From a virus, in the IMG/VR virus record IMGVR_UViG_3300017527_000885: a stretch of DNA of 64,000 nt; one strand, 5' to 3'. The position numbers and the translations under genes were made by a program. The notes beneath the pieces were generated by a model. It did not search any database and was not told where the DNA came from. It saw only the letters and a list, made by a program, of their open reading frames with translations. This document shows positions 24,020 to 44,650 of the stretch, in pieces. How positions within the stretch are numbered: the stretch's first letter is position 1; each line of letters begins with the position of its first letter.

Positions 24020-25069
24020 CTATAGCGCGATCCCCTCGAGCAGTCGGGCCGCGCGGTCCTCATAAGTATGTCCAGCAAAAGCAATACGGTTTAGCTCTCT
24101 TCCAATCTCTTTCCTATCCTCCTCGCGCGGTATCCACTCTCGGATAAGTGCCTCAAGTTCCTCGGCAGTATCAAAGGTTGGAACCAGGTCGCCAAATATC
24201 TCCTCGAGTTCCGGGCGGCCCTTCTGCGATACAAAGAATGAGCCGCAACCTGCTAGCTCGTAGCATCGTGGGTTAATACTCTCCGCCTCCACAACAGTTT
24301 CCTCGCCAGCATAGTCCACACTGGTGCGGGAAAGATTCATATTCACCTTAGCACCGTTGTAGAACATTGCAGCCTCCGGGTTAGCGACAATGGCTCGATG
24401 ATAATGCTTCCCCAGTGGATGCTCGTGATCGAACGGGTATTGTCCTATCAGAGTGAAATCAATGCCATCCCAGTTCACTCCCTCAAGCATCTCGATGCGC
24501 TCTTTCCACCCGCTTCCTACAAACACAGCATCCTTTTTGTGCCTTGACGACACAATCATTGGATGATGAATCTCTGGGTCACAGGCTGTGGGGAGATAGG
24601 GAATTCCAAAGGTCCGCGCGCTTGCCCTGTCATTGGCAAACGCAAAGTCAGCAACCTTTGCCAGATAACCATGTATAGGGTCGCGGTAGGGACACTCGGT
24701 CATCACTAGGGCTGTAGGAATACCTACACGCTCCCACGTGTTCCAGGCCAGACGATGTACCTGTGTTCCGTCAATTACAACTATTAGATCGGGGAATGTG
24801 CGCATGGCCTGGAATGCGACATCGCCACTAGCCCTTTCCAGGATTCCCTGCTTGTCGACCTCTGGCTTAGCCTTGCTGTCGAAGAGACCGCGAAAAGTTA
24901 AGGTCTGGTGCCATAGGGTGACTAGGCTATGGAAGTCTATCGCGTTGGCCTGCAGGCCCATATTCCTGAAGGCGTCTAGGTAGCCTACTGCAACATCCTT
25001 TGGGCCAGATGCAGTGGCGGGAAAAACAACAGCTATATGTTTGATTGTCATGGGTCTCCTGTTTGACAT
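24020..25069 (-). CDS. putative glycosyltransferase (GT-B/CgeB-like)
   Basis: 349 aa. Weak resemblance to the GT-B C-terminal half. Context supports the call. Confidence 0.3.
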   Translation of the reverse strand: MSNRRPMTIKHIAVVFPATASGPKDVAVGYLDAFRNMGLQANAIDFHSLVTLWHQTLTFRGLFDSKAKPEVDKQGILERASGDVAFQAMRTFPDLIVVIDGTQVHRLAWNTWERVGIPTALVMTECPYRDPIHGYLAKVADFAFANDRASARTFGIPYLPTACDPEIHHPMIVSSRHKKDAVFVGSGWKERIEMLEGVNWDGIDFTLIGQYPFDHEHPLGKHYHRAIVANPEAAMFYNGAKVNMNLSRTSVDYAGEETVVEAESINPRCYELAGCGSFFVSQKGRPELEEIFGDLVPTFDTAEELEALIREWIPREEDRKEIGRELNRIAFAGHTYEDRAARLLEGIAL

Positions 25070-25100
25070 AATCGCAATATGATGTTATCATAAACGTATC

Positions 25101-25850
25101 ATGCCTATTAGATATTTACAGTGCAAAGTGTGTGATTCTACCCTCAATCCCAAAACTCAGTTTAGGGGATTTTGCAAGGCTTGTCAAGAAGCAACCCATC
25201 CATGCGAATGTGGGTGCGGCAATCCCGTCAAAAGCTGGTACCTGTACAGCGGGAAAACTCCAAAAAGAAGAAGGTTTCTTCCGAAGCATCTCGCACGCAC
25301 GCTGATCGGGAGTTCTCGTCCGTCTTTCAGCGAGGCTTGGCGAGAAAATCTGGTGCGCTCCCATACCCCCTGGTCGAGAGAGGAAGACAGGCTGCTTGTT
25401 AGCCTCTATCCCCGCCTGGTATCCAAGAAGCTTCGGGAGTTCTTTCCCAGATTTACCGCCCAGCAAATTGCGGTTCGGGCCAATCACCTCGGAGCCAAAA
25501 AGACCAAGCAGGCCCTGAGTGAGGCTGCAAAGGCAAACATGAAAAGCCGCTGGAGTGGACATGTGTATAAAATCAAGGACGATGGACGCAGGGGACCAAG
25601 CTGGGGCCAGCAGCGAAGAAATGCACGCTATCGCGCGGAATACAAGTGTGAATTCTGTGGGGCCAGCGAAGATGTGCTTGGTGCCCAACTTGTAGTTCAC
25701 CATATTGTTCCCTTTAGAGAGTTTGGCGACGATTACGTCCAGGCCAACAGAATGTCCAATCTAGTTGCTTTATGTCGTCAATGCCATCCCAAGATAGAGC
25801 AGCAGATTTTTACAAACAGGGAAGGGCTATTGGCAAGCTGGACTGATTAG
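25101..25850 (+). CDS. HNH endonuclease
   Basis: N-terminal Cys cluster (CKVC...CKAC...CECGCG), then an HNH core (VVHHIVPF...N...LCRQCH). Sits on the opposite strand inside the late operon, typical of homing-type HNH genes. Confidence 0.6.
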   Translation: MPIRYLQCKVCDSTLNPKTQFRGFCKACQEATHPCECGCGNPVKSWYLYSGKTPKRRRFLPKHLARTLIGSSRPSFSEAWRENLVRSHTPWSREEDRLLVSLYPRLVSKKLREFFPRFTAQQIAVRANHLGAKKTKQALSEAAKANMKSRWSGHVYKIKDDGRRGPSWGQQRRNARYRAEYKCEFCGASEDVLGAQLVVHHIVPFREFGDDYVQANRMSNLVALCRQCHPKIEQQIFTNREGLLASWTD

Positions 25851-26641
25851 ATATGCCCATACTCTGGAGTTACGCCATTCAATTCCTCAAACAGATGTTT
25901 GTTTGCTGTCTTTTGTCTGATCCAGTCTATATATTCGTCCCAGGGCTTTTCCCAGGGATAGCCATGGTACTGGTGCATTGGCTTGACCTTCACATCAAAG
26001 ACGCACTTGCAGCCAGCGTCAAACAGTAGATAGGAAAAATGCAAATCCTCGTAGCCATATTTCCCATCGAAGGCGCTCTCATGCCCCACGAGCCTTGCCT
26101 TATCCATTGGAACAGAGAGACCATGCCCGCTCATATATTGCCAGCGCAGGACAACGGGGGTCTGCACAGGGTCCATTCTTCGGTTCCACCACGCATGGTC
26201 GAATCCCAATGAGCCATCTGAAAGCTCGGAAACGAAGGGATTGAAAACAAGCCAGGGGCCATTGCTGCTTGTGTGCCAGGGTATATGGCTCTCAACCCAC
26301 TCGGGAGGATATACCATATCATCCTGCGCTCCCAGGTACACATCTCCTTCTTGGATGTCGAGGGCCATCTGGTTGTGTGTGGCTCGACCATGGAGAGAAG
26401 GACACTCACAAACTTGGACCTTTATCTCGAATGGTGGACGATCTTGTTTGTCAAGCCACTCCCGCACAGCGCCGTTGCGCTCGACGATTACCAGAGAGAC
26501 TTCTAGTGGGGAGTACGTCTGTTGTAGAAGAGAGGCCCACGTGTTTCTAAAGGTGCCTATCTTCCAGTCTGCTGCCGCTATGTTCACGGATGCTTTCACC
26601 CGCGCCTCCTTTAGTTGCAAGATACATCCGTGCCCAGTCAA
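25847..26641 (-). CDS. putative glycosyltransferase (GT-A-like)
   Basis: EVSLVIVERNG...GAQDDMVYPP gives a DxD-like motif. Weak. Confidence 0.35.
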   Translation of the reverse strand: MTGHGCILQLKEARVKASVNIAAADWKIGTFRNTWASLLQQTYSPLEVSLVIVERNGAVREWLDKQDRPPFEIKVQVCECPSLHGRATHNQMALDIQEGDVYLGAQDDMVYPPEWVESHIPWHTSSNGPWLVFNPFVSELSDGSLGFDHAWWNRRMDPVQTPVVLRWQYMSGHGLSVPMDKARLVGHESAFDGKYGYEDLHFSYLLFDAGCKCVFDVKVKPMHQYHGYPWEKPWDEYIDWIRQKTANKHLFEELNGVTPEYGHI

Positions 26642-27236
26642 GGAATGTCCCTAAAGACATGGTGCTGTTCTTTGGAGCACGGTAAGGGATTGGTACAGAC
26701 CTAATGTTGTGATTCTTGTGTTTGAGTAGCAATTCAACCTGGAAGGCATGTGGGGTACGAGACTGAAACCTTTCCAGATTTAGACTGTCTAGACGGTAGA
26801 GCCGGAACCCGCTTGTGCTGTCGGGCAGGCCCAGCCCTGTGATACGCGAGGCAATGTTGGAAATCAGTCGGCGCAAGCCACGACCATGGAACTCCCTGGC
26901 CCCAATCACTATATCGGCCACGCCGTCAGTGTTTGCTATAACCAACTTGTTGATCCAATCGGGGTCAAAGTTCTCGCCGCTGTCCATAGTGCATGCCCAA
27001 TCGTACCCTGACTGCCGCGCATACTTTAGCCCATAAAGATACTTCAGGGGAATAAACTGCCAGGCCACATTAGGAAAGGATACAGTAGTGGCCCCCCTCT
27101 CCTTGGCAAGCTGGGCTGTGTTGTCAGTACTGTCGTCAAGAATGATGGGGTGACAGTACTCTGGCATCCCCTCTAGGAGAGGGATGATGCGCTTTCTTTC
27201 GTTGTGTGTTGGTACGACAACTGCTATTTCTACCAT
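26547..27236 (-). CDS. glycosyltransferase family 2 (polyprenol-phosphate sugar transferase-like)
   Basis: VVVPTHNERKRI...ILDDSTDNT...TMDSGENFDP motifs. Confidence 0.6.
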   Translation of the reverse strand: MVEIAVVVPTHNERKRIIPLLEGMPEYCHPIILDDSTDNTAQLAKERGATTVSFPNVAWQFIPLKYLYGLKYARQSGYDWACTMDSGENFDPDWINKLVIANTDGVADIVIGAREFHGRGLRRLISNIASRITGLGLPDSTSGFRLYRLDSLNLERFQSRTPHAFQVELLLKHKNHNIRSVPIPYRAPKNSTMSLGTFLDWARMYLATKGGAGESIREHSGSRLEDRHL

Positions 27237-27559
27237 AACCCCGCTAGCTTTGCAACAGCAGCAACTAGGGCCGCAAGCTCTGCTAGACGAACCCCCTGAT
27301 CGAATAGGCGCGCGGTATTACTTTTTTGCCCTTCCGCCAGCGTTGAAAGTGTCTCAGTGATATGCTTGTGTTCGTTGGTGGTGTGACCCAACTGCCGCTC
27401 TTCCAGCGTAATCATACGCCCACATAGTTCGTGGTGATCTTCTCGTAGTCCCTTTATTTCTGTAACTGATTCCTTGCGATAGCCCTCAATCTTTTTGGCT
27501 AGATGACCAAAATTCTGCTCAATCAACTTCTTCAACTCCGTGTTGCTAATACCTGCCAT
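27230..27559 (-). CDS. hypothetical coiled-coil protein
   Basis: 109-aa ORF. Confidence 0.35.
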   Translation of the reverse strand: MAGISNTELKKLIEQNFGHLAKKIEGYRKESVTEIKGLREDHHELCGRMITLEERQLGHTTNEHKHITETLSTLAEGQKSNTARLFDQGVRLAELAALVAAVAKLAGLW

Positions 27560-27568
27560 GCATCACTC

Positions 27569-28039
27569 CTATTCTGATGACGTTCTTGCTACTTGTAGTT
27601 GTACTGTTAGCACAAGCTGCTGTCTAAGAAAGTACGGCCCCTTGCCTGTGTCGCGGTCCATGACGGCCTCTGGCTCCAATCCTTGAGAGATATATGCCAA
27701 TGATACACCAGTAGTGCTATCCAGTGTTGGGTACTTGTCGAACTCGGCCACTATGACATCTACATCATCAACCAAGTTGGTATAAGTGTCGCCGTCTTCC
27801 TCGTACTTCCGATAAACGTATAGAGCATACTCATGCTCGGCTGCATAAAAACCCATCATGCCCAGTTGGCCGCCCTCGGGTCCGTGGGTAAAGGGGGCCA
27901 GCCGCTCCAAGACTACTGCCCGTTTCAGCCCCTTGTCAATCACTTTATGATCCGCAATAGACACGTTAGTCTTGTCGTAGTTACTTGCCTTCCGTGTTAC
28001 TGCCGCCGCCCCTTCGAGTACGCCTTTTGCTGTTCCCAT
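27569..28039 (-). CDS. hypothetical virion protein
   Basis: 156 aa. Connector-size ORF in the late operon. Confidence 0.35.
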   Translation of the reverse strand: MGTAKGVLEGAAAVTRKASNYDKTNVSIADHKVIDKGLKRAVVLERLAPFTHGPEGGQLGMMGFYAAEHEYALYVYRKYEEDGDTYTNLVDDVDVIVAEFDKYPTLDSTTGVSLAYISQGLEPEAVMDRDTGKGPYFLRQQLVLTVQLQVARTSSE

Positions 28040-28040
28040 T

Positions 28041-28610
28041 TTACACTCCTACAAAACGAACTCCGCCAGATTTGCCAGTTATGGACATTATTATCGCGCG
28101 CCCGAGACGCTTAGATGCATAGATTCCCGCCTTGAGTGTATCCTTAGAGTTCATAGTTAATTCCAAAAATGGAAAGCCGGGATCGCCATGCTGCTGCACT
28201 TGCCACTGAGAGGTTCCTCTCTGGCGAATCATTTCCTGAATTGGGTATGCCGCCATACGGTCCCCCAGCTTGAACTCGGCCCAATCCATCAGATCGTTAA
28301 TGTCCTCGTTGCGAGGGGGGCCGCCAAAATGAATCCACTTTACAGTAATCCAGGGGACTGTTACGCCCCTAACATTCGGTCCCACAACAGCGACATTATC
28401 ATTCAAAAGCCTGTAGTTGATTGATGATTCAAATGCCCCGGTGTAGCGGATAGGTCTTGATTCCCTGCGCATGACCTGTGTAAGGCGGTCACCCAAGAAA
28501 GACAGCACTGATCTAGAGAGTGCCGGAAACTTTGCTTCAGCGCGCTTCAAGTTAGCAGCAAACCGAATCAATTCTCGCTGATTAATTTTAACAACCATTA
28601 CCCCTGACAT
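28041..28610 (-). CDS. hypothetical virion protein
   Basis: 189 aa. Start abuts the previous stop. Confidence 0.35.
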   Translation of the reverse strand: MSGVMVVKINQRELIRFAANLKRAEAKFPALSRSVLSFLGDRLTQVMRRESRPIRYTGAFESSINYRLLNDNVAVVGPNVRGVTVPWITVKWIHFGGPPRNEDINDLMDWAEFKLGDRMAAYPIQEMIRQRGTSQWQVQQHGDPGFPFLELTMNSKDTLKAGIYASKRLGRAIIMSITGKSGGVRFVGV

Positions 28611-29623
28611 TAGTTATTATCCCACATATCAGTCTTGAATGTTGGCGAGATTATATCTTCGTCGTCCCTGTAATCGTCCCGCTCGTCCACATCAATGTGT
28701 CCGGCAGTTAGCCCGGAACTCAGCTTTGTTGAGGTTGTGCGATCCAACCCAATAGAGACAAGCATATCAACCATCGCACCGCCATCCTGCAACTCGTCCC
28801 GCAGATAGTAATACTGTGAGCGGAATGCACCTGCGCGAGTGTCAGTCTCGCCTATGGTAAATCCGGCTGTGCGCTGTGTGAGTTCACACCTCATTGCCAC
28901 GCCAAAGTTAGCATAGCTCCTAATTAGCTTGATGGCAGTATCATCTGTGAGCGGTGTATCAAATCCAGCGCCAGCCAGCCAGGAATCCACCTCGTTGCAG
29001 GTATCCTCTTCAAAGTCCATTACCGCCATGATAGAGACTGCGGAGTCAGTGTTATATTTACCCTTATCGGTTAGGTGACGTGTTGACGCCTCGATCTCAG
29101 ACAGGCTAGTGTACACAACACGCTCGCGGCTGAAAAGCTTGAAGCAGAAATCAGTGTCTGTACCTATGTTGCTCCAGGCCGAACCGCTGTATGCCTCCCC
29201 CTCACCATCCAAATAGATTGGGGCGGTCTGGTCACAACCCCAAACAATCTCGGTGACGCCATTTGCATAAGTATATCCACTCGAGCGGAGAACCACATGG
29301 TAGCTGGTCAACGGGGATATAATCTCTCGCGCATCATCTAGAATGTCAAAGTCCACCCAAGTATAGCCTGTGCCAACGCCGGACATAATGACAGGAGTGG
29401 AGGTGCAGCTACCAATTACTGAGCCAGAAGGGTTGTCAGAGGATGTGTACTGAAGGTCTACAACTAGATAGCCAGCAGGAGAGCCGACCTTCTTCAGGTA
29501 AAGGGAGACGCGGCCAATGGGCGCGGCTCGATGTAGCCTGAACCGCTGGCCTAGCTGCTGATCGGCCCCCGTGCTAGTGAGATCAACCCCTGCGTTCTGC
29601 GTGGTGTACTCTAGTAGTTTCAT
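28610..29623 (-). CDS. hypothetical structural protein
   Basis: 337 aa, Thr/Ser/Gly-rich beta-type composition. Confidence 0.4.
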   Translation of the reverse strand: MKLLEYTTQNAGVDLTSTGADQQLGQRFRLHRAAPIGRVSLYLKKVGSPAGYLVVDLQYTSSDNPSGSVIGSCTSTPVIMSGVGTGYTWVDFDILDDAREIISPLTSYHVVLRSSGYTYANGVTEIVWGCDQTAPIYLDGEGEAYSGSAWSNIGTDTDFCFKLFSRERVVYTSLSEIEASTRHLTDKGKYNTDSAVSIMAVMDFEEDTCNEVDSWLAGAGFDTPLTDDTAIKLIRSYANFGVAMRCELTQRTAGFTIGETDTRAGAFRSQYYYLRDELQDGGAMVDMLVSIGLDRTTSTKLSSGLTAGHIDVDERDDYRDDEDIISPTFKTDMWDNN

Positions 29624-29937
29624 TACTGCAACCTCTTACCTACGGTGAATTTTACTGCCACGCTGTAGATTTCCTGGGCAGCAGACACAACGTAGGCCTG
29701 AACCTCCCATTCTCCCTTCTGGTCTATATCCCCGGCTGCTAAGGTGCACTGAATCTTTCCATCAGTGCCATCAGTCGTAAATGATGCTGTCTTGGTGACC
29801 AGCTTGCCATCCAGCCCCTTAAAGAGAATTTCCTTGGTTGTGGTAAAACCAGAAATATCCTTGGCGCTATCATCTTCGGTAACGGTCAAGATTATCACTT
29901 GCCCGGAACCGTCTTCTACTAGATCGTCTAAGCTCAT
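29623..29937 (-). CDS. hypothetical small structural protein
   Basis: 104 aa. Preceded by a promoter-motif copy and a GGAG RBS. Confidence 0.4.
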   Translation of the reverse strand: MSLDDLVEDGSGQVIILTVTEDDSAKDISGFTTTKEILFKGLDGKLVTKTASFTTDGTDGKIQCTLAAGDIDQKGEWEVQAYVVSAAQEIYSVAVKFTVGKRLQ

Positions 29938-29958
29938 GAAGCTACTCCTATACCCCTA

Positions 29959-29992
29959 ATTCTAACGCCGGAACAATCCGATGGCAAGGTTA
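29959..29992 (-). promoter_or_regulatory. promoter TAACC-TTGCCA-N17-TAGAAT
   Basis: - strand: TAACCTTGCCATCGGATTGTTCCGGCGTTAGAAT. It overlaps the stop of the Ser/Thr-rich gene and lies about 20 nt upstream of the next ATG. Confidence 0.5.
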
Positions 29993-32900
29993 GTACTCTG
30001 TGTTAGCTGTCCCGGTGACGCGTACCTTCACATTGCTGGTACCAGTGATCTTTACGCTGACGTTGCTTGTTACTGTTGACTTTATCTTTGCGTCAGAAGT
30101 GCCCGTTAGGCGTGCCTCTGCATCCGAAGTCGCCGTGAGGCGCACCTCCGTGCTTTCCGTGTATTCCAGCAGTGTTGTAGTTGTACTTGTTAGCGTTGTA
30201 GTTGTCGAGGTCGAGCTAGATGTTGTAGTGCTGGTTGTAGTTGATGTACTGGTAGAACTACTGGTTGTAGTCGTACTAGTCGAAGTTGAGGTCGAGGTGG
30301 ATGTACTCGAACTGGTTGTAGTGGTCGAAGTACTGGTCGAAGTACTTGAAGAAGTTGTCGTAGTACTGGTACTGGTTGACGTACTGCTTGACGTGGTGGT
30401 CGTAGTACTGGTGCTAGTTGACGTACTACTTGATGTGGTGGTTGTAGATGTAGACGTACTTGTACTGCTCGATGTGGTCGTAGTTGAAGTGGATGTGCTC
30501 GTAGATGTGGATGAACTAGTTGTGGTTGTGCTAGTTGACGTACTTGTGCTAGTTGAACTACTCGTGGTGGTAGTTGACGTGCTTGTGCTGGTTGAGCTAC
30601 TGGTCGTGGTGGTGCTAGTTGATGTGCTGGTCGAGCTACTGGTTGTGGTAGTTGATGTGCTCGTTGACGTGCTTGTAGAACTCGACGTGGTAGTAGTCGA
30701 GGTGCTAGTGCTCGTACTGGTCGTGGTAGAAGTACTTGAGCTTGTCGTGGTAGTCGAGGTCGAGGTAGACGACGAGGTAGTAGTGGTGCTGGTCGATGTT
30801 GAGGTAGTCGAGGTAGTAGATGTGCTTGTGAGCGAAGTGGTAGTCGAGGTTGAGGTGCTGGTGCTGGACGAAGTTGTGGTGGTAGATGTGCTTGTGCTGG
30901 TTGTAGTTGACGTAGACGATGACGTGGTAGTTGTGCTGGTTGAGCTACTGGTTGTGGTGGTGGATGTACTCGTAGACGTGCTGGTAGAACTTGACGTAGT
31001 AGTAGTAGACGTGCTTGTGCTGGTTGTAGTTGATGTGGACGAGGATGTAGTAGTTGTGCTAGTGCTAGTTGACGTACTTGTAGATGTCGAGCTTGACGTG
31101 GTGGTAGTGCTCGTGCTAGTGCTCGTAGACGTAGATGACGACGTGGTAGTAGTGCTCGTGCTCGTGCTGGTACTCGTAGATGACGATGTAGTGGTTGTGC
31201 TAGTACTGGTGGATGTGGTTGTACTGGTAGAGCTTGACGTTGTAGTTGTGCTGGTTGAAGTCGATGTTGTAGTAGACGTGCTCGTAGATGACGATGTGGT
31301 AGTAGTAGACGTGCTCGTAGATGTCGTCGTGCTAGTCGAGCTACTGGTTGTAGTAGTAGATGTGCTGGTGCTAGTTGTCGTAGACGTAGATGAGGATGTG
31401 GTGGTAGTAGACGTGCTGGTGCTGGTTGAGCTACTAGTTGTGGTCGTGCTAGTAGATGTAGAAGTTGACGATGATGTAGTGGTAGTAGAAGTACTCGTGC
31501 TAGTTGTCGTGGAAGTCGAAGATGATGTAGTGGTAGTACTGGTTGATGTAGATGAGGATGTGGTAGTGCTGGTAGACGATGACGTGGTTGTCGTGCTAGT
31601 GGAGGTAGAGGTCGTGGTAGACGTACTAGAACTCGTTGTAGTGGTGCTCGTAGAAGTGCTGGTGGTGGTGCTCGTGGACGTAGTTGCCCATTCCAGGATC
31701 ACATCATCCACTTGGTATGGCAGCGTTGTCGTAGTACTGGTAGATGTAGACGACGAGGTAGTAGTGGTACTGGTCGATGTGCTTGTAGTTGTCGATGTAC
31801 TAGACGATGTGGTGGTAGTTGATGTGGATGTCGAGGTTGAAGTTGAGGTCGAGCTTGATGTGGTTGTGGTGGATGTAGAAGTCGAAGTTGTGGTTGAGGT
31901 AGATGTAGTCGCGGCGGCGACCAGAGTACTAATCCTGAGTGCAGACATTCCAACACTGTCGCCCACCGTCTGTCCTAGACCAGCCGAGGAAGCCTGAAAG
32001 AACTCAAACTCAATCTCGTCATCAACCGCGAGGGCGGCCATGAAGCTGCCAGAAAAAGCGGCATCGTATGTGGCGGTGCTGCTCTGCAACCCTCGCATAT
32101 ACTTAATGGAAATCTCTTCCTGATTCGCGTCGTTGTTAGTCCACCTTAGACCATGCTGGCTACGTGTACCCGTGGAAGATGCACGGTTGATCCTAGCCCC
32201 AACCGTGAACAAATAATCATCCTCAACCTCTACCTCAATGGTGGTATTGTCATTCCTTGTGAATGAAGCTGCATCTATCGTTGGGGTAGTTCTGCACGCA
32301 TTGAGGTAGCCAGTGGCGGTTGTTTCCTGCGCACCTGTTGCATCGTTGCCAATTACAACCTCGGCGGAGCTTGGTAGCTCCATCACAAACAGGCCACTCT
32401 CCCACCCAGCCGTAGCACTTCTGGCACCAGAAGTGCTGCTAGCGCCCTGATACACCTCTATTTGTAGGTCTAGATTCTCGGTGTCATTGTCTACAATGAA
32501 AATACAGGATGCAGTCTCATAGTCTGTGTCGGTGTCACGCAAATACAGCGCACTGTTACTCTGCGGAATAATCGTTCCATCTAGCGTGGCACAGACAACC
32601 CTTGCCGCACGAGCGGTGCCCGCAAATGTCACATTGTACGCTACCAAATACCGTGCTATCGACTTGAGCGTGATGGCCTCGTTGTCAACTCCCTGAATCT
32701 CAATTACGCCCGTGTCGGTTTCCTCGGTTGTGGTGTCGAACATCAGCGGGGCAAAGGAACCGGAGTTGTAGGCACCAGTGTCGGTGCCCTCGGCGTACAA
32801 CCCAAACGCAACAGCGGGTGTAACATCAGCCAGCTTGATTAGTGCTAGCTCCGAGTCTGCGGTTGCATCGTCTGTGGGAGTGGAATCCTCTCCACGGGTC

Positions 32901-33271
32901 ATGTACTCCACGCGGAAGTCTGCACCCGTGCTGGTTACCTTGAAGATACAATGGCCCCCCGCACAAATCTCGTCATCTTCATTCTGCCGCATAAAGTTGG
33001 CGCTGCGACCGCCTACGATCTCGCTACTGTTCCACAAGGCCCGAACAGCACCAATCATGCGGCTATCTGACTCGCCAACAGTCCTCACCCGATAGATCGC
33101 CAGGTAATACCCAGTCTCATCTATTTGTACATCTATGTCATTGGCATCTTGGACAAAAATGGCCGCTGGCGTACCGACAGGAGCAGAAAACTCCACGCCT
33201 TCCCAGCTATCCTCTGACGTTGGGAGCGCGAAGGTGCCTACCCTATATTTTGCGGTATCACCAATAGGCAT
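29990..33271 (-). CDS. mucin-like Ser/Thr-rich fiber protein (putative O-glycosylation substrate)
   Basis: 1093 aa. A globular N-terminal domain of about 450 aa, then about 590 aa of near-pure (T/S) repeats (TTSTSTSTTTTSSSTS...), then five C-terminal tandem 10-aa beta repeats (RLTATSDAEA/RLTGTSDAKI/KSTVTSNVSV/KITGTSNVKV/RVTGTANTEY). Confidence 0.6.
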   Translation of the reverse strand: MPIGDTAKYRVGTFALPTSEDSWEGVEFSAPVGTPAAIFVQDANDIDVQIDETGYYLAIYRVRTVGESDSRMIGAVRALWNSSEIVGGRSANFMRQNEDDEICAGGHCIFKVTSTGADFRVEYMTRGEDSTPTDDATADSELALIKLADVTPAVAFGLYAEGTDTGAYNSGSFAPLMFDTTTEETDTGVIEIQGVDNEAITLKSIARYLVAYNVTFAGTARAARVVCATLDGTIIPQSNSALYLRDTDTDYETASCIFIVDNDTENLDLQIEVYQGASSTSGARSATAGWESGLFVMELPSSAEVVIGNDATGAQETTATGYLNACRTTPTIDAASFTRNDNTTIEVEVEDDYLFTVGARINRASSTGTRSQHGLRWTNNDANQEEISIKYMRGLQSSTATYDAAFSGSFMAALAVDDEIEFEFFQASSAGLGQTVGDSVGMSALRISTLVAAATTSTSTTTSTSTSTTTTSSSTSTSTSTSTSTTTTSSSTSTTTSTSTSTTTTSSSTSTSTTTTLPYQVDDVILEWATTSTSTTTSTSTSTTTTSSSTSTTTSTSTSTTTTSSSTSTTTSSSTSTSTTTTSSSTSTTTSTSTSTTTTSSSTSTSTSTTTTSSSTSTSTSTTTTSSSTSTTTSTSTSTTTTSSSTSTTTSTSTSTTTTSSSTSTSTTTSTSTSTTTTSSSTSTTTSTSTSTTTTSSSTSTSTSTSTTTTSSSTSTSTSTSTTTTSSSTSTSTSTSTSTTTTSSSTSTTTSTSTSTTTTSSSTSTSTSTSTTTTSSSTSTTTTSSSTSTTTSTSTSTTTTSSSTSTSTSTTTSLTSTSTTSTTSTSTSTTTTSSSTSTSTTTTSSSTSTTTSTSTSTSTTTTSSSTSTSTSTSTTTTSSSTSTSTSTTTTSSSTSTSTSTTTTSSSTSTSTSTSTTTTSSSTSTSTSTSTTTTSSSTSTSTSTTTTSSSTSTSTSTTTTTSSSTSTSTSTTTTSSSTSTSTSTTTTSSSTSTSTSTSTSTTTTSSSTSTSTTTSTTTSSSTSTTTTLTSTTTTLLEYTESTEVRLTATSDAEARLTGTSDAKIKSTVTSNVSVKITGTSNVKVRVTGTANTEY
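30150..31920 (-). repeat. low-complexity tandem codon repeats encoding poly-Ser/Thr
   Basis: About 1.8 kb of imperfect repeats (GTAGTTGTGCTGGT-type units on the + strand). They yield a spurious V/L/D/E-rich + strand ORF at 30000-31997. Confidence 0.8.
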
Positions 33272-33615
33272 TAGTTACAGACCTCTGTACAGCACTTGCA
33301 ATTTACCAAGAAACACTCATACTGCCAATCATGGGGGCACTCATCGCAGGGGCAAGGGCGCAGATAATGGGCCAGGGTGAGATAGGCCTTGTCTTTCCTG
33401 CCCTCCTTCTGGTTCTTGATATGACTTATATCAACCAGTATAGCGTTGGGCTGATTCTCCTCAATAGACCCCTCGATAATAGTAATCTCGTCCTTGATCT
33501 GATGCCACCGAGCAACAATGTACGGAAACTCCCAGTCTTCAACCATGCGGTCACCATAGCTATTAACACAGAATAGCCATTCTACAAGCTTCTTGGGCAG
33601 TCCGCTATTGTTCAT
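33271..33615 (-). CDS. hypothetical protein with Cys-rich C-terminus
   Basis: 114 aa ending CPCDECPHDWQYECFLVNCKCCTEVCN. Confidence 0.35.
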   Translation of the reverse strand: MNNSGLPKKLVEWLFCVNSYGDRMVEDWEFPYIVARWHQIKDEITIIEGSIEENQPNAILVDISHIKNQKEGRKDKAYLTLAHYLRPCPCDECPHDWQYECFLVNCKCCTEVCN

Positions 33616-34748
33616 TAGCTATCGTATATCTCCCTGACCTGCACGTAGCGCCACTCCCGATCCAGGGGCGCGGAATAGGTTGTCCAAGCTGGGTTTACAT
33701 CATCCTGGGCAAATGTGCTAGTATCACCCCGAATCTGTAAGGTTGCATCCTCTTGGCCTGCACCATATCTATTCTCAGTAAGGGTATAAGTGCGGACATC
33801 CGAGTTGCCAAAATCATAGACCGCGCTACGCCCCTCCTCATTGAAATTAAGTTCTAGCTTGCCCCAATCCGAGTCACCGTCAATAGTAGGTGTTCCAGCG
33901 GCACCATCGCTCCAGGTCTGCCAGCTAACAGCGGTCTCTCCCTCTGTAGGAGACTCCTCACCAAATGCCAAGCCACCTGTTGGAGCCAGCGTGGTGGTTG
34001 TCGTAGTGCTGGTTGATGTGCTGGTACTAGACGAAGTTGTGGTGGTAGATGTGCTTGTGCTAGTACTAGTTGTGGCACCAGTCTTATAAGACAGCATCGA
34101 GGTTGCAGGGTAAATAACCGCAGGGTGATCAACAATTGTGGGGCTACCAGAGTCAGCCAGATGCTGCCCACTAACTCGATCCTGGTCACCATCCCGAATC
34201 AGCGGGTAGTAGTGAACTAGGTTTTCTGGCTTGACAAATAGGGGTGAGTACCCAGCCGCCAAAATCAGTGCGTCGGCAGCGGTCAGAGCCACGTTCCAGA
34301 TAGCCACCTCGCCTGCCATACCAGACAGGTACAGATCGGCAAAACTGAATGTAGCACGGGCCACCCGCACTTGGTCTAGGTCTGCTACGGATGTATTATC
34401 TGTGTTGGTGGTCGTATTCACCCCATCACAGTAAATGGTGCGACTAGAGGTAGAGGCAAACACAGCAAGGCCATAGTGCCAAGTGTTAGTCGATAGCACA
34501 CTTGCCACCTGTGCATTCTTCGCCCCAGCACCGCCGTAGGTGTATGCTTCGAGCGGGTCGTTAAGTACGTCACCCCGAATAGCCATGGCGCACATATCGT
34601 TATCGCTGTCATCCCCGACTGATGCCACAACCTGACGCAACGTGAGCGAATCGGTTTGAAAAACCGCAGCTATGGAAATAGGGGTGCCCGTGACAAGCGA
34701 AGTGCCCTCTAGATATTGAGAACTGCCATCATCAAACCCTCTAGCCAT
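33615..34748 (-). CDS. structural protein with a poly-Ser/Thr linker, possibly a concanavalin/LamG-like lectin fold
   Basis: 377 aa. Central GATTSTSTSTSTTTTSSSTSTSTSTTTTTT tract. The N-terminal part has a beta-rich LamG-like character (weak). Confidence 0.35.
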   Translation of the reverse strand: MARGFDDGSSQYLEGTSLVTGTPISIAAVFQTDSLTLRQVVASVGDDSDNDMCAMAIRGDVLNDPLEAYTYGGAGAKNAQVASVLSTNTWHYGLAVFASTSSRTIYCDGVNTTTNTDNTSVADLDQVRVARATFSFADLYLSGMAGEVAIWNVALTAADALILAAGYSPLFVKPENLVHYYPLIRDGDQDRVSGQHLADSGSPTIVDHPAVIYPATSMLSYKTGATTSTSTSTSTTTTSSSTSTSTSTTTTTTLAPTGGLAFGEESPTEGETAVSWQTWSDGAAGTPTIDGDSDWGKLELNFNEEGRSAVYDFGNSDVRTYTLTENRYGAGQEDATLQIRGDTSTFAQDDVNPAWTTYSAPLDREWRYVQVREIYDS

Positions 34749-34768
34749 GTACCCCGCCTATTTAGCTA

Positions 34769-35266
34769 CTATGTTTCCCTGATTTCGACCCGTAGAAGCT
34801 CGGCATCACCAGTCATGTTATCAGACCCGTTGTTTGCATCCCTGTTTACCTTGAGTCTGAATGACTCGCCAGCAGCCACGCTGTCCATCTCCGCACCATC
34901 GGTGAACGCAATGTCAGTGTACTGTGGCTCGCCACTCGCACTTGCCGTAGCAGCAGTTGCTGATTGCACAGCCGCGAAGCTGTCCGAGTCCAGGTCTGTG
35001 GTGTCATCTTGGTGACGCTCGAAGGACACGTCCCAGATTACATTGTCGGCAGTTGCCGTGGATGCAAGCCAAACCAAGCTCACAGTAACACCAGTTGTGC
35101 CAGCATAGTTGCGGGGCATCACAGCACCAAACACCGCCGCCTCATCTGTGTCAGCATCAAAGTCCAGTACCGCGTGCTGATTACGGGTGTCTAGCGTTGC
35201 AGGGTTGCTTGCAGGCGGTTCGTTATGCAACGGGGTAAAGATTATAAGTGTATCGCCACTAGCCAT
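34769..35266 (-). CDS. hypothetical protein
   Basis: 165-aa ORF. Confidence 0.35.
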   Translation of the reverse strand: MASGDTLIIFTPLHNEPPASNPATLDTRNQHAVLDFDADTDEAAVFGAVMPRNYAGTTGVTVSLVWLASTATADNVIWDVSFERHQDDTTDLDSDSFAAVQSATAATASASGEPQYTDIAFTDGAEMDSVAAGESFRLKVNRDANNGSDNMTGDAELLRVEIRET

Positions 35267-35277
35267 TATCTACTCCT

Positions 35278-35562
35278 TTAGTCAACATTTCCAAATAGTC
35301 TGCGCGCAAACGCCACGCTCATTCTCGTCGCTGCTACTGCCACAAAGATAAACGTTTTCTGCGTAGCGGTTAGATCGGTACGCGCAGGCAGTGGCAATGC
35401 CGCGTTAAATGATGCTTGGTTGTCTTCAATCCAGGTATCCGTAGCATCCACAGCCGCCCTAAGCTCGGGCTTGTCCAGGGCCATAAGCTCCCTGTCCCTG
35501 CTCCAAAAGCGCATTAGGCCACGCCACACCCGTTTCCTGTCTTCATCCGATAGTTGTGCCAT
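35278..35562 (-). CDS. hypothetical protein
   Basis: 94-aa ORF. Confidence 0.3.
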   Translation of the reverse strand: MAQLSDEDRKRVWRGLMRFWSRDRELMALDKPELRAAVDATDTWIEDNQASFNAALPLPARTDLTATQKTFIFVAVAATRMSVAFARRLFGNVD

Positions 35563-35611: not shown

Positions 35612-36436
35612 CTACAAATACTCTCTATATATCTCGGGGTCTGTCCTTACCCCACTCTTGCCCCAGACATCACAGTCCGGGTCCCACAACCCCTCATCTC
35701 CAAAGCCCTTGGTGGACAGCTTGTTCCAAAAGGGCCGAGCGTGGGGCAGTGCCACATTGTAACCCGTGGGTTCATCCTTGGACTGTCCCCAATGATGCCA
35801 AATCCATGAATAGCTGGTGGACAGGGCGCGAAATCCCGCCTGGTAAATACGAGAGTCCATATCATAATCCTCACCACCTCCTGGAAAGAACCGCTCGTCA
35901 AAAAGCCCAACCTTCTCGATCCATTCCTTCCTTCTAAATGTGACCATCCACATAGCTATGCCATCGACAACCGCACCCTTCTTCTCTTCCCTGAGCCTTT
36001 GAATGTTCTCTGGGTGCCGGGCATCCTTTAAGCTGAGATGTATTCGGTATCCTTCCTCACCATACCCCCATCCCGGCTCTTTGGGCGACATAGGGGCTAC
36101 AGCTATGGCATTGTCAAACCTCTCAAAGGTCTCAATAATGCCAGGCCACCAGCCCTGAAGAAAGATCACATCGTCATTGGCTATGGTAACGTACTCGGTC
36201 TGACATAGCCGCACCCCTATGTTGGCAGCCTGTGCAAACCCATAGTTCTTACTCGTAGTAACCACGACATCGGCCTGCTCTCGCAACTCCTGCTCGAACT
36301 CGGGAGCGGGTTTAGTCTGATTGACCACTATAGTATTATAGTTGCTGGGTGTGACCTCGCGCAAGGTTGATAGCGCGGGAAGAATGAAATCCTGGCGAAT
36401 AATAGGAAACACAAAGGTATTTATGAGATTCGACAT
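35612..36436 (-). CDS. glycosyltransferase family 2
   Basis: TSKNYGFAQAANIGVRLCQTEYVTIANDDVIF, a GT2 signature. Confidence 0.55.
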   Translation of the reverse strand: MSNLINTFVFPIIRQDFILPALSTLREVTPSNYNTIVVNQTKPAPEFEQELREQADVVVTTSKNYGFAQAANIGVRLCQTEYVTIANDDVIFLQGWWPGIIETFERFDNAIAVAPMSPKEPGWGYGEEGYRIHLSLKDARHPENIQRLREEKKGAVVDGIAMWMVTFRRKEWIEKVGLFDERFFPGGGEDYDMDSRIYQAGFRALSTSYSWIWHHWGQSKDEPTGYNVALPHARPFWNKLSTKGFGDEGLWDPDCDVWGKSGVRTDPEIYREYL

Positions 36437-37320
36437 ACTCGGTTGATGCCCTCCATCATGTGATCTAAGGTGTAGTTTTGCATAACGAAATCGCGGTACT
36501 CATGACTGTCATACGGCCCGTGAATCATCTCTATACACTCGTCTATTGTTGTCCATACCCAGGACTCGGGCCAGATATCTTTGGCGCGCCAAAAGTTGTG
36601 AACCAAAGGCTTGATACCCTTCAGGGCAGCCTCCGCAGTGACGTAACTGAATGCTTCCTTCTGACTCGAGACTATTAGGTAGTCCTTATCCTCAAGCCAC
36701 TCGTCCACAGATTCAACACTGGCGGTGAACTCTACATCTAGCCTCATCTCGTCAATAATGTGTCTCTTGTACCAGTGTAACCAGCGCTCTGTGTTCTCAG
36801 TGCCCAGAACATGAAGCTTCCAGCCTGGCAGTTTAGCCATCACCTGAAATAGCAGGGGAAGACCCTTGGCCGACCATTGGTGTGCCACAAACGCCATGTT
36901 TCTCCCTGCGCCATTCCTGACCCGGAAACCCCACAGGGAAGGTAAAACCCCAAAGGGGACGTGGGCGACCTCCAGGGATTCAGGTAGGTCGGTGTATGAT
37001 CGAACCAACTCTTCAATGTGCTTGGCACCAAAGATGAGCGCGTCCACATTCTCCCAGGTCACAGCGCGAGGCTGTCTAACCCAGCACTCAATATCAATCG
37101 CCCGAATCACGAGGCGCGATCCCTCGAACTTGTACGTGCTTCCGACATTGGCATTATGGTCACACACATCAATGAGACACACATCGGCCCACTCATGCTT
37201 GGCTGGATCGTAGCCCATTGTGTACTCCACCTCGTGACCATTGGCCCTCCAAGCATCTAGGATAGGGCCAAGGAACTTTAGTCTCCAGTTACAGCAAGCA
37301 TATAGTTTCATTTTAAGCAC
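36421..37320 (-). CDS. glycosyltransferase, GT-B fold (GT4-like)
   Basis: EAFSYVTAEAALKGIKPLV matches the E-x7-E/EAxAxG-P-V motif of GT4. Confidence 0.45.
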   Translation of the reverse strand: MLKMKLYACCNWRLKFLGPILDAWRANGHEVEYTMGYDPAKHEWADVCLIDVCDHNANVGSTYKFEGSRLVIRAIDIECWVRQPRAVTWENVDALIFGAKHIEELVRSYTDLPESLEVAHVPFGVLPSLWGFRVRNGAGRNMAFVAHQWSAKGLPLLFQVMAKLPGWKLHVLGTENTERWLHWYKRHIIDEMRLDVEFTASVESVDEWLEDKDYLIVSSQKEAFSYVTAEAALKGIKPLVHNFWRAKDIWPESWVWTTIDECIEMIHGPYDSHEYRDFVMQNYTLDHMMEGINRVCRIS

Positions 37321-38366
37321 CTAAATAGAGGGCGGGGGCCGTGATCCCTTGTCATCCCCAGGAATTCCACCTCTCGGAAATGTTGCTCGAGTCTCGGTCG
37401 GAATGTTTCCTCTCTGTCTGGTACGTGGCCCTCCAAGTAGAACACATCCGCACACAGGTTCGCCATCCATTCGCTGTATCCAACCTGGCGGTCGACAGAA
37501 AGGGCAAACACAATGTCATATTGCTGATCTAGTGCGGGATGTTGCTCGTCAGGAAGATGTAAGCCCAAAAAATCTATGTTCCAGTAGCAGTTCCAGTTAG
37601 CTAGTTCTGCGGCGACACTGGTAACGTGGGGCAAGTCAATTCCTACCACGCGCCCTGCTTTCTGCCTGGTAGCCTCGTAACAGAACAGGCCTAGATTGCA
37701 ACCAATATCCAGCACGGTCTTTCCCTCAAAGGAGAGCTTGTCCAGTTCCATCATCTCTGCACGGTGTTGGAAGTCGCGTTGGCCTCCAACATCAAAGACA
37801 GACTGGTAAGGCTCGGGACGCGATCCCCAAGCTGCATACTCGAACGCGCTGTCAATTAACTGTTGTACATAGCGCTGGGGGTGAGTGAAAGTCCAGGGCT
37901 GGAAATCAACCAGCTTGCCAGCCACCCAGTTCTTAGGGTTCATATCCCAGGAGGCTCTGACATGAGCGTGGCGCATGATCTCTTTGATGCACTCGGGTTT
38001 CCATTCACCCTCACCCGAGAGGTAGTCGGTAACCTGGGCATACTGATCATTCGCTCGGACTATGGCGTACACTCTGGGGGCCAAGTCGCGCATGGCAAAG
38101 ATATTCTGTATTCTGGTACAGTCAATCAGGGGATTGGTGCCCCACTGCAGAGTGTCTAGTTTGAATACCTTGAGACACAGGGCGGGGCGGCCGTAACGCG
38201 AGAGGAGTTGCTGTTCTATTTGCTCGTTGTGAGCAATGAAAGTGTAGACACCCTGCTGTCGCTTGGTGACAGGCGCAAGGGTGCCGGGGAACTCAATGTG
38301 CTCTATTTTCGGTATGCCACTATGATCATATACGGTCCCTGTCTTATCTTCTCCCACAATATCCAT
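37308..38366 (-). CDS. class I SAM-dependent methyltransferase (two-domain)
   Basis: Motif I VLDIGCNLGLF in the C-terminal half. Confidence 0.5.
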   Translation of the reverse strand: MDIVGEDKTGTVYDHSGIPKIEHIEFPGTLAPVTKRQQGVYTFIAHNEQIEQQLLSRYGRPALCLKVFKLDTLQWGTNPLIDCTRIQNIFAMRDLAPRVYAIVRANDQYAQVTDYLSGEGEWKPECIKEIMRHAHVRASWDMNPKNWVAGKLVDFQPWTFTHPQRYVQQLIDSAFEYAAWGSRPEPYQSVFDVGGQRDFQHRAEMMELDKLSFEGKTVLDIGCNLGLFCYEATRQKAGRVVGIDLPHVTSVAAELANWNCYWNIDFLGLHLPDEQHPALDQQYDIVFALSVDRQVGYSEWMANLCADVFYLEGHVPDREETFRPRLEQHFREVEFLGMTRDHGPRPLFRCLK

Positions 38367-38884
38367 TCCTCATCCAGTATTAGCCCTTGCAACTCCCCCT
38401 CCGTAAAATCGTGCTCGTGATGCGGGTTGGCATGTACCGTGGGAATGACTGGCGCACTAAGAATAATCAGGTTTCTCGTAGCGGCCTTCAACATCCCCAC
38501 AAAATGCTCGGGTGGACAACCCAGATGCTCAATGGTCTCAAACGATACAGCGACGGTGCAGTCAGGAAGCTTGTCAATTTCGCACAAGTCCATTTGTACA
38601 TACTCAATGTTCGTTCTGGGCCATTGCTTATGAGCAATCTTTAGAGCCTCAATGTCAATGTCAATTGCTGTGACCCCACTAGCGATACTGGCAAGAAATG
38701 CGCTGCCATATCCTGTCCCGCAGGCTACATCTAGCACGTTGTCATACTCGTTGACAAAGCCCTTTGCTAGATAATAGCGAAAGGTATGACCCAGCCACTG
38801 GCGGGACTGATATCCATACGCGACCGGGTTTATCCATCCTGGCATATTTCCCCCACAAAGTGGAACCGTGTTTTCTCGTCCCAA
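38303..38884 (-). CDS. class I SAM-dependent methyltransferase
   Basis: NVLDVACGTGYGSAFLA. Confidence 0.6.
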   Translation of the reverse strand: MGRENTVPLCGGNMPGWINPVAYGYQSRQWLGHTFRYYLAKGFVNEYDNVLDVACGTGYGSAFLASIASGVTAIDIDIEALKIAHKQWPRTNIEYVQMDLCEIDKLPDCTVAVSFETIEHLGCPPEHFVGMLKAATRNLIILSAPVIPTVHANPHHEHDFTEGELQGLILDEEWILWEKIRQGPYMIIVAYRK

Positions 38885-40759: not shown

Positions 40760-40760
40760 C

Positions 40761-42945: not shown

Positions 42946-42964
42946 CCTGCTCCTTTTTAATTGG

Positions 42965-43333: not shown

Positions 43334-43336
43334 TTA

Positions 43337-44637: not shown

Positions 44638-44650
44638 TGTACTAGCTCCT

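Follow-up and report, generated by a model that had tools for sequence, protein, structure and literature searches.

The C1q/TNF fold is usually met in the knob with which trimeric fibres, among them BclA, C1q and the receptor-binding heads of phages, bind their ligands, and the stalk of BclA is O-glycosylated, with an anthrose pathway. Here we describe a 1093-residue protein encoded on a 64,000-nucleotide stretch of viral DNA (IMG/VR record IMGVR_UViG_3300017527_000885; "the window" below means this whole stretch), for which BclA of the Bacillus anthracis/cereus exosporium nap (C-terminal domain, 1WCK and 3TWI; F-BclA, 9H38; ExsFA, 7R1M) is the closest known counterpart in function and shape. 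The likeness lies in a predicted C1q-like knob, a long Thr-rich stalk that would form a surface hair, and dedicated deoxy-amino-sugar and methylation genes. BclA is built of three chains in a collagen GXY triple helix with a C-terminal knob and an N-terminal anchor, whereas the window protein would be one chain with an N-terminal knob and a serine/threonine (S/T) stalk that lacks Gly and has Pro solely in a short embedded island; its carrier is a phage, not a spore, and its head has no sequence similarity to BclA (10–13% identity). Collagen-like proteins occur just as neighbours in related loci, not in the window stalk.

The predicted head can also be set beside the engineered single-chain TNF/C1q trimers (4ZCH, single-chain (sc) APRIL-BAFF-BAFF; 5KCA, sc-Cbln1; 5HZF, sc-gC1q; 4DOU, sc-adiponectin), which are laboratory fusions of natural trimers, whereas the window head belongs to a natural family of about 580 clusters, is 10–12% identical to them and has no Pfam C1q/TNF match.

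Mimivirus coats its particle with fibres by means of virus-encoded glycosylation machinery, and a Mimivirus-clade protein is among the predicted structural matches of the window head described below. The documented cases of virion glycosylation are so far, to our knowledge, a few capsid and tail proteins of actinobacteriophages. In the work of Freeman et al. (2023, Cell Host Microbe 31:1216) the acceptors were reportedly capsid and tail-tube subunits, with few glycosyltransferase (GT) genes per phage. As far as citing papers summarise actinobacteriophage virion glycosylation (PMC12582341, PMC13313380), the likeness to the window consists of phage-encoded GTs and methyltransferases for which virion proteins, modified in the cytoplasm, are the presumed targets; the window differs in its 579-residue mucin-like candidate acceptor, its approximately 11 GT-like genes and its sugar-nucleotide pathway.

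Serine-rich repeat protein (SRRP) adhesins (PMC6973325, PMC7948813) and flagellins (PMC7591256) are known to receive O-glycans in the cytoplasm. The serine-rich repeat (SRR) adhesins Fap1, GspB and SraP share with the window protein a folded binding region and a long Ser-rich stalk, and are O-glycosylated in the cytoplasm before assembly; the window protein differs in having neither signal peptide nor LPXTG motif, in the fold of its binding region and in being phage-borne. The tails of two relatives (L008/L009, SASESASESPSE...) resemble the SRR dipeptide repeats. No accessory Sec (aSec; SecA2/SecY2) genes were seen among the Pfam matches of the window, where no search was aimed at aSec components. 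Phage decoration proteins are accessory capsid appendages encoded near the capsid gene that serve adhesion or stability (PMC7602432); these and the head fibres (phi29 gp8.5, T4 Hoc, SPP1 gp12) are of Ig-like, OB-fold, beta-tulip or collagen-like type, with no report of a mucin-like glycoprotein among them, and Pfam and PHROGs detected no homology of the window protein to known decoration proteins. The poly-serine and PT/ST linkers of bacterial carbohydrate-active enzymes are likewise long hydroxy-amino-acid linkers between folded modules, and several relatives of the window protein carry pure poly-Ser; the enzyme linkers are typically tens of residues long and found in secreted enzymes, whereas the S/T tracts described here span 579–761 residues, with a fixed grammar and an embedded motif, in a phage morphogenesis block. 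In our literature searches neither a mucin-like fibre of a phage nor a single-chain C1q/TNF head of natural origin came up as described before. Glycosylated virion appendages are a known kind of structure; what is new here is the domain architecture and a previously unannotated family.

Anatomy and grammar of the serine/threonine tract

The 1093-residue protein is read from a complete gene on the minus strand, the parts of which are given below with the open reading frame (ORF) that lies opposite.

29990–33271, minus strand: complete head-stalk-tail gene, 1093 residues, ATG start (ORF list; stop codon 29990–29992)
31910–33271, minus strand: head, residues 1–454, mixed composition, predicted to be folded as three tandem C1q/TNF-type jelly rolls (about residues 1–150, 151–300 and 301–454)
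31724–31909, minus strand: S/T tract 1, residues 455–516 (62 residues), 100% S/T
31685–31723, minus strand: island LPYQVDDVILEWA, residues 517–529 (13 residues), a short motif inside the S/T tract
30173–31684, minus strand: S/T tract 2, residues 530–1033 (504 residues), sole non-S/T residues L814 and L1027
29993–30172, minus strand: C-terminal end outside the S/T repeats, 60 residues (1034–1093), with decapeptides at residues 1044–1093 (29993–30142)
30000–31997, plus strand: antisense "mirror" ORF, 665 residues, V/L/D/E-rich, not a gene

An earlier note on this DNA had given the ORF and its length exactly, whereas its figure of about 590 residues of pure S/T was slightly generous, though correct in essence: between residues 455 and 1033, 564 of the 579 residues are S or T (321 T and 243 S; 97.4%), and the tract is interrupted by the 13-residue island and two single Leu. 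The tract is a mucin-type repeat of 33 units, each of which starts with TTTTSSS and continues as (TS)n or TSTTT(ST)n to a length of mostly 13, 15 or 17 residues. Runs of S are one or three residues long only, and runs of T are one, three or four, rarely two or five. TTTTSSS occurs 33 times against 4.8 expected and at most 14 times among 2000 shuffles; the order of S and T in the tract is non-random. The stalk has no Gly, and with a single Pro, within the island, it is S/T-type rather than Pro/Thr/Ser (PTS)-type. Neither a signal peptide nor a transmembrane segment is present in the protein, the N terminus of which is not hydrophobic (maximum 19-residue Kyte–Doolittle value, KD19, of 1.50 at residue 142), and its C terminus, ...TGTANTEY, carries no LPXTG motif.

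At the DNA level this regularity is erased. All ten S/T codons are in use and their entropy is close to the maximum (S 2.50 of 2.58 bits, T 1.98 of 2.00), the 18 peptide copies of TTTTSSSTSTSTS are written in 18 distinct DNA strings (mean nucleotide identity 0.60, third-position identity 0.28), the longest exact repeat within the 1.7-kb tract is 23 nt, and Tandem Repeats Finder reports degenerate arrays only, with 60–85% matches. One substitution is enough to turn an S codon into a T codon or the reverse, so an S/T order that stays fixed while synonymous divergence is saturated suggests that the order itself is read, as would be expected of a sequence-specific modification, and this is the strongest internal argument for glycosylation. 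The same pattern argues that selection acts on the peptide and not on the DNA of S/T tracts; the diverse codons may spread tRNA demand or guard the tract against recombinational deletion. A young slippage expansion or contingency locus was considered and rejected because the tract DNA is not repetitive. GC skew over tract 2 is +0.40 to +0.45 (plus strand), and the antisense frame is free of stops because it reads the ACN/TCN/AGY tract in reverse.

Tracts of the same kind recur in a second contig of 44.6 kb that is present in IMG/VR (L025), where five consecutive genes encode S/T-tract proteins of 413, 630, 967, 485 and 312 residues. The 967-residue protein has a 761-residue tract, 97.8% S/T, in which TTTTSTSSS occurs 34 times and TTTTSSS not once; here too the codons are scrambled, with 21 copies in 21 DNA versions, a third-position identity of 0.32 and a longest exact repeat of 27 nt. 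The 485-residue protein, with a laminin G (LamG) domain, an S/T linker and a C-terminal module, is the orthologue of a 377-residue protein encoded in the window (see below), and the cluster ends directly at an SU10_adaptor head-tail adaptor gene. The public gene calls for this contig are antisense V/E/L/D mirror ORFs (8811–9608, 9663–11120 and 11878–12453, minus strand) instead of the S/T genes, so that the scarcity of S/T-tract relatives in protein databases is partly due to gene callers having chosen the mirror ORFs.

Embedded island and C-terminal decapeptides

The island has counterparts within the S/T tracts of two L025 proteins, LPYQVDDIIWEWS and VPYQVDDIVIFWEG, at 9649–9687 in the 967-residue gene and 13197–13238 in the 312-residue gene, respectively. 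The motif [LV]PYQVDD[VI][IV]..W is found in three proteins with unrelated N-terminal domains from two phages, with LPYQVDD as the core common to the window island and the L025 tracts. It is a conserved short motif of S/T tracts, and may act as a docking strand that engages an enzyme or the capsid. A degenerate DNA search of IMG/VR for the PYQVDD island returned the L025 contig and one chance match in a portal gene only. Several S/T proteins end in similar short hydrophobic peptides (LPYKFRVEMV, FPFMWTVEEVGV and LLEYTESTEVRL).

Residues 1044–1093 of the window protein are the five C-terminal ten-residue repeats that the earlier note had recognised, RLTATSDAEA, RLTGTSDAKI, KSTVTSNVSV, KITGTSNVKV and RVTGTANTEY, with the pattern [RK]-x-T-[AGV]-T-[SA]-[DN]-x-x-x; their lag-10 identity of 24/50 was reached by 0 of 20,000 shuffles. 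A Pfam match of these repeats to DUF2807/GIN (putative autotransporter adhesin head) is weak and sub-threshold (20.0 bits, where the gathering cut-off is 24.2; E = 6e-4), and a 67-residue query covering the C-terminal end found no homologues sharing words among 5.8 billion proteins.

Predicted structure and relatives of the head

Structure prediction of the N-terminal domain, which had been proposed as a check on the locus, was carried out with AlphaFold2 on a 33-sequence alignment and gave an all-beta model with three similar C1q/TNF-type sub-domains at high confidence (predicted local distance difference test, pLDDT, 88.9; predicted template modelling score, pTM, 0.91); an earlier model from four sequences had given the same answer with lower confidence. 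The predicted head shows the ten-strand jelly-roll β-sandwich with C1q/TNF topology, and its three jelly rolls are predicted to pack with three-fold symmetry into a bell shape. Its structural matches, with 10–13% sequence identity, were as follows.

4zch_B: APRIL-BAFF-BAFF, score 36.4 (372 residues aligned, 2.5 Å)
5kca_A: Cbln1, score 32.9
5hzf_A: C1q globular head, score 32.5
4dou_A: adiponectin, score 31.0

Sub-domains 1 and 2 retain a residual sequence likeness (z = 7.1 against shuffles). The model indicates that the head is a naturally occurring pseudo-trimer in which one chain supplies all three C1q/TNF jelly rolls, and that the 1093-residue protein is not a classical trimeric fibre. The sequence by itself does not place the head in the known families, with no match to Pfam C1q (PF00386) or TNF (PF00229) at E <= 0.1; Pfam and PHROGs gave nothing significant on residues 1–455, and neither tblastn with the head nor megablast with 24 kb of the window found a match among GenBank phages. 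Foldseek against predicted viral structures returned whole-head matches, all uncharacterised, including A0A516MN79 (template modelling (TM) score 0.87), the Mimivirus-clade protein (0.78) and an uncultured Caudovirales phage protein named "C1q domain-containing protein" (0.72).

A word-indexed search with the head found three relatives only, whereas 1.84 billion cluster representatives, when searched with a profile, yielded 580 matches at E <= 1e-3, of which 209 reach E <= 1e-30, with protein lengths from 174 to 7287 residues. By these matches the head defines an unannotated family of about 580 clusters that is common to phages and bacteria of the candidate phyla radiation (CPR). The window gene has both a full-length profile match and an adjoining Cys-rich gene, the two marks of the family, and homologues of residues 1–454 at 53–65% identity were found at 18 metagenomic or viral loci (IMG/VR, metagenomes). 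Some of the cellular homologues come from Patescibacteria/CPR metagenome-assembled genomes (MAGs; Peribacteria, Saccharibacteria) and from one Thermoplasmatales MAG (L021–L024); a profile search of genome contigs returned these four MAG loci with the CPR-type alignment and none with the phage-type head alignment. Signal-peptide-like N-termini, belonging to cellular homologues, are present in 18 of 152 family representatives, and the CPR head proteins may be adhesin tips of episymbiont surface fibres. In P0008, P0012, P0061 and P0080 the head follows a signal peptide in very large proteins (up to 7287 residues), at times twice per protein.

Comparison of repeat length among relatives, which had also been proposed, was made at 53–65% head identity and showed tails that differ sharply, from none to Ser-rich tracts with other repeat units. 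The head is followed by:

P0002/L001, L010 and L016: nothing
L003: a 100-residue globular domain that also occurs in the next ORF
P0001/L002: 35 residues of poly-Ser and a 115-residue domain
L008/L009: at least 260 residues of (SASESPSE)n
L011: at least 212 residues of poly-S(Q/L)
L014: 440 residues of (SSESSSSQSSP)n, then 19 residues
L005/L017: (SSSSE)n, about 700 folded residues, and about 900 residues of (SSSSE)n

An S/T-rich stretch of 30 residues or longer is present in just 2 of the 152 family representatives, so the long S/T tract is not a feature of the family. From these comparisons the head is the constant element and the Ser-rich tail a recurrent but lineage-specific addition in the nearest clade, of which the Thr-rich, 579-residue version belongs to the lineage of the window. 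A proposed identity of the P0001 C-terminal domain with the C-terminal module of the 377-residue protein was rejected, there being no BLASTP similarity. In L005/L017 (IMGVR_UViG_3300028920_001474, 10,001 bp) the head is split over the contig ends, with residues 158–452 at the start and 1–192 at the end; the split points to an assembly that was circularised, or collapsed at repeats, around the (SSSSE)n tract of about 900 residues, the length of which cannot be trusted.

Partner genes and glycosylation machinery

The head gene is joined by TAATG overlaps to two genes upstream of it.

33271–33615, minus strand: 114-residue Cys-rich partner gene, TAATG overlap with the head gene
33615–34748, minus strand: 377-residue sister protein, TAATG-coupled to the 114-residue gene

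In 13 loci, the window among them, the gene immediately upstream of the head gene is Cys-rich (36–49% identity in the 12 others). The 114-residue protein has a Cys cluster near its C terminus, CPCDECPHDWQYECFLVNCKCCTEVCN; it has no family match in Pfam, PHROGs or NCBIfam and no sequence match in the PDB, and could be a chaperone, adaptor or metal-binding partner. Outside this two-gene cassette the related loci have almost no genes in common with the window. Genes found repeatedly beside the cassette encode collagen-like proteins (L001, L004 and L014) and Laminin_G_3 lectin-domain proteins (the 377-residue protein of the window and two proteins of about 1000 residues in L009), and L014 has a T4 neck-protein-like gene upstream.

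The 377-residue protein has a Laminin_G_3/ConA-like lectin domain at residues 8–159 (Pfam Laminin_G_3, E = 7.6e-11), followed at residues 226–253 (window 33990–34073) by a 28-residue S/T linker, TTSTSTSTSTTTTSSSTSTSTSTTTTTT, with the same TTTTSSS unit and with DNA 80% identical to one stretch of the long tract; the earlier note had pointed to this shorter linker and, as set out below, to the GT genes nearby, and both observations stand. The 377-residue and 1093-residue proteins are the only ones in the window with S/T runs. The 124-residue C-terminal module of the 377-residue protein (window 33618–33989) has 65 metagenomic homologues at 48–75% identity, many of which stand alone at 105–145 residues and some of which are preceded by a Thr-rich S/T linker (as in P0169 and P0177); the module is a candidate for an anchor to the virion or for a decoration unit linked to glycosylation.

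The window comes from the genome of a tailed phage. In transcription order on the minus strand, the context is as follows.

60212–62308, minus strand: Mu-like portal
56498–57739, minus strand: head maturation protease-like protein
55122–56093, minus strand: major head protein (phrog_1005, E = 6e-80)
35612–52732, minus strand: 17-kb glycosylation island (Pfam, NCBIfam)
27230–35562, minus strand: block with the 1093-residue gene
24020–27236, minus strand: second GT block with three GT-like ORFs (Pfam), interrupted by a plus-strand HNH gene
20603–24010, minus strand: 1135-residue protein with a central M23 peptidase domain (residues 716–821), separate from the tape measure
12939–16070, minus strand: tape measure, after a short plus-strand block

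The 1093-residue gene is thus transcribed after the gene for the major head protein and before that for the tape measure, and genes for decoration proteins, head fibres and connectors usually lie between the capsid and tail genes. About 11 GT-like ORFs in the window flank the gene on both sides. Of these the island contains six that are GT2-like and two that are GT4/GT1-like, along with at least five methyltransferases, a SPASM protein, and the sugar genes for an Fcl/RmlB-like short-chain dehydrogenase/reductase (SDR; epimerase/dehydratase), a PseC/DegT-like aminotransferase and a MobA-like nucleotidyltransferase. GT4/GT1-family ORFs lie at 24020–25069, 36421–37320 and 41677–42945, with matches at the family level that are not specific to GtfA/GtfB, the pair of initiating O-GlcNAc transferases of SRRP adhesins. 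No transmembrane-like segments were found in the glycosylation ORFs of the window, and no flippase or polymerase was seen. For comparison, a 2025 cyanophage paper describes 13 glycosyltransferases as possibly the highest count in a marine phage genome (PMC12801897).

Glycosylation genes accompany S/T or Ser-rich proteins, or the 124-residue module, in other, independent contigs as well. L025 carries DegT, cupin, methyltransferase and GT2 genes, and L027, which carries the 124-residue module, has an island with a radical S-adenosylmethionine (SAM) protein, four GT-like ORFs, methyltransferases, an SIS isomerase and a GHMP kinase; in L012 a methyltransferase lies beside the head cassette. In L014 (Ga0180433_10000018, 264 kb, jumbo-phage-sized) a 564-residue protein (9730–11421) is encoded directly after the gene for the head with 440 Ser-rich residues. 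It has MptE-like and GT8-like matches, both below Pfam thresholds, and is followed by radical SAM, GT2 and FkbM methyltransferase genes; the MptE-like match we take to be of the Maf flagellin-glycosyltransferase type.

Proposed role and alternative explanations

We lean towards a reading of the 1093-residue protein as a monomeric, O-glycosylated hair on the virion head or neck, for which we infer both the glycosylation and the virion location. In the proposed mechanism one polypeptide would form a pseudo-trimer of three packed C1q/TNF-type jelly rolls, followed by a stalk that would be a single mucin-like chain of 579 residues with a strict T4-S3-(TS)n grammar; because the head would already be a "trimer" within one chain, the stalk could not be a three-chain collagen or coiled coil, unlike the three-chain collagen stalks of BclA, of C1q and of the collagen-like neighbours. 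The 13-residue hydrophobic island and the 50-residue β-repeat end would serve as docking or capping elements. Because it has no signal peptide, the protein would be made and modified in the cytoplasm, where the soluble GTs of the phage would most likely O-glycosylate the S/T tract with nucleotide sugars supplied by the adjacent amino-sugar and methylation genes. Mucin domains extend by about 0.25 nm per residue, and with dense glycosylation the tract would become stiff and extended like a bottle-brush and could reach about 100 nm or more. With the 377-residue lectin-linker-module protein it would form a glycan-rich coat on the head or neck, for shielding, reversible adhesion or both. The S/T tract is a plausible O-glycosylation scaffold by its composition and order, and the position of the gene, together with the adjacency of the L025 cluster to an adaptor gene, fits head or neck appendages.

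The polarity of such a hair may be read in either direction. The constancy of the head, the head-only relatives and the 19-residue end of the L014 tail suggest that the head is attached, perhaps through the Cys-rich partner, with the tail pointing outwards. The opposite polarity, at least for the 377-residue protein, is suggested by the lectin-like character of the C1q and LamG domains, the position of the CPR head at the mature N terminus and the stand-alone occurrence of the 124-residue module as a possible anchor.

Several observations weigh against a glycosylated virion hair. The relatives consisting of the head only (P0002, L010 and L016) indicate that the stalk is dispensable for the role of the head. 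PHROGs gave no family match on ten local proteins, so that the structural assignment rests on position, and the 337-, 189- and 156-residue downstream ORFs found no support as connectors in Pfam, PHROGs or NCBIfam. The C-terminal 60 residues are an orphan sequence. A 226-residue ORF between the island and the capsid gene, described below, is the sole candidate for a membrane or lipid-linked step. In L003, GT genes lie beside a tail-less, S/T-free head protein, so the link between GTs and the tract is not strict, and in L001 and L009 there is no GT gene within 7 kb of the head or Ser-rich genes. The GT island could also modify the capsid, the DNA or the host surface instead.

The last three of these points bear equally on an account in which the S/T tract is a naked entropic tether, an unglycosylated disordered linker, comparable to the poly-serine linkers in glycoside hydrolases of bacteria, that spaces the head while the GT island serves capsid subunits, DNA or the host envelope. 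This account also draws on the chemically different tails of the relatives ((SSSSE)n, (SASESPSE)n and poly-S with Q or L), which point to composition rather than a sequon. A spacer should, however, tolerate shuffling, whereas the S/T order is rigid within each lineage (TTTTSSS 33 times in the window, TTTTSTSSS 34 times in L025) over randomised synonymous sites; genes for S/T tracts and for the 124-residue module lie time and again right beside large soluble GT islands; and the window offers no other obvious acceptor with S/T runs. We consider the tether unlikely. It is also improbable, in our view, that the protein is a receptor-binding tail fibre with the head as host-receptor knob on a flexible stalk and the C-terminal β-repeats as anchor to the baseplate or tail. 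The BppU_N (baseplate upper protein) domain encoded by the next gene would suit such a fibre, as would the CPR homologues, which place the head at the mature N terminus of long surface proteins, but the gene lies between the capsid and tape-measure genes and not after the tape measure like distal tail genes, and the L025 cluster ends at a head-tail adaptor gene. Moreover, the head-only relatives have no anchoring part, the L014 tail ends in just 19 non-repeat residues, and a monomer on a 579-residue flexible stalk would be unlike the known fibres that transmit a trigger.

A product outside the virion, namely a lectin-like protein that stays in the cytoplasm or is released (for example a decoy, a factor for superinfection exclusion, or a binder of biofilm or host surface freed at lysis), has only a small chance of being correct. 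The missing PHROG structural match, the head-only homologues and the secreted surface proteins of CPR cells are what such a product would predict; opposed to these are the absence of a signal peptide and transmembrane segment, the translational coupling of the gene in a same-strand block between capsid and tail genes, and neighbours in related loci (collagen-like, lectin-domain, and neck or adaptor proteins) that are typical of virion modules. The earlier note had named an assembly artefact in the repeat region as grounds for abandoning its claim, and it is true that low-complexity regions often break assemblies, that several related contigs end inside Ser-rich tracts and that the antisense frame is open. 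Nevertheless a mis-assembled or non-coding repeat, or a true gene in the antisense 665-residue ORF (30000–31997, plus strand), is so improbable that we exclude it: the unit copies all differ in their DNA with scrambled codons and a longest exact repeat of 23 nt, the frame runs continuously from the conserved head into the periodic C terminus, the same architecture is found in the independent L025 contig, and the antisense ORF is a V/L/D/E mirror without homologous context.

Returning to the glycosylated hair, a wider and more tentative proposal, possible rather than probable, is a phage "mucin" system in which environmental tailed phages would build glycan hairs of about 100 nm from monomers. 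The lineage-specific S/T grammar would be a sequon for the phage's own cytoplasmic GTs, the LPYQVDD island and the short β-strand ends would be docking peptides for enzymes or capsid, and the single-chain head, which surface proteins of CPR bacteria also have, would be a lectin or attachment knob; the whole would be a convergent one-chain counterpart of the BclA nap and the Mimivirus fibril layer, largely missed owing to mirror ORFs. If the hair is real, phage virion glycosylation would extend to a dedicated mucin-like acceptor of hundreds of residues served by about a dozen phage enzymes, which would bear on how phages adhere to surfaces or mucus and are protected from grazers, enzymes or antibodies, as well as on the reading of "auxiliary" GT islands in viromes. 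The predicted head would be nature's version of the single-chain C1q/TNF trimer that engineers built by hand, and is a candidate lectin scaffold. The codon-scrambled tracts provide a natural case of a peptide repeat kept while the DNA repeat is erased, of use for questions of repeat stability and for synthetic mucin design, and since mirror ORFs hide S/T genes from protein databases, the class is probably under-counted.

Other features of the window and related loci

The 226-residue ORF (53434–54114, minus strand) between the glycosylation island and the capsid gene has marginal hydrophobic segments. It matches a dolichyl-phosphate hexose transferase very weakly and is 30% identical to L003 8924–9676, a GT-A-like ORF directly upstream of the Cys-rich gene of that locus. 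Within the island, 38830–39984 (minus strand) encodes a 384-residue fusion of a SAM-methyltransferase and a polysaccharide deacetylase, with 37–40% identical counterparts in L025; the fusion suggests that the sugar made may be both N-deacetylated and methylated.

Promoter and terminator scans of the window stayed at chance level, an Rfam scan of the window gave no match, and no tRNA genes were found in it. NCBIfam returned nothing useful on ten neighbours, and the 337-residue neighbour retrieved no loci as a query against IMG/VR. Look-ups of the 1093- and 377-residue proteins by identical sequence, and of one exact 50-mer in IMG/VR, gave no match.

The 1135-residue M23 protein is probably a virion-associated cell-wall hydrolase. 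An HNH endonuclease gene (25101–25850, plus strand) is inserted amid the GT genes, and L012 has an HNH/NUMOD3 gene near the head cassette; both may be mobile homing elements in glycosylation and fibre modules. A VWA domain protein is encoded near the structural genes (18320–19405, plus strand), and another VWA gene adjoins the head gene in L001 (9113–10501, minus strand). In the early/replication block, and unrelated to the hair, are an SPFH/Band-7 protein with two transmembrane-like segments (466–1527, plus strand) and a DnaB-like helicase (4721–6166, plus strand).

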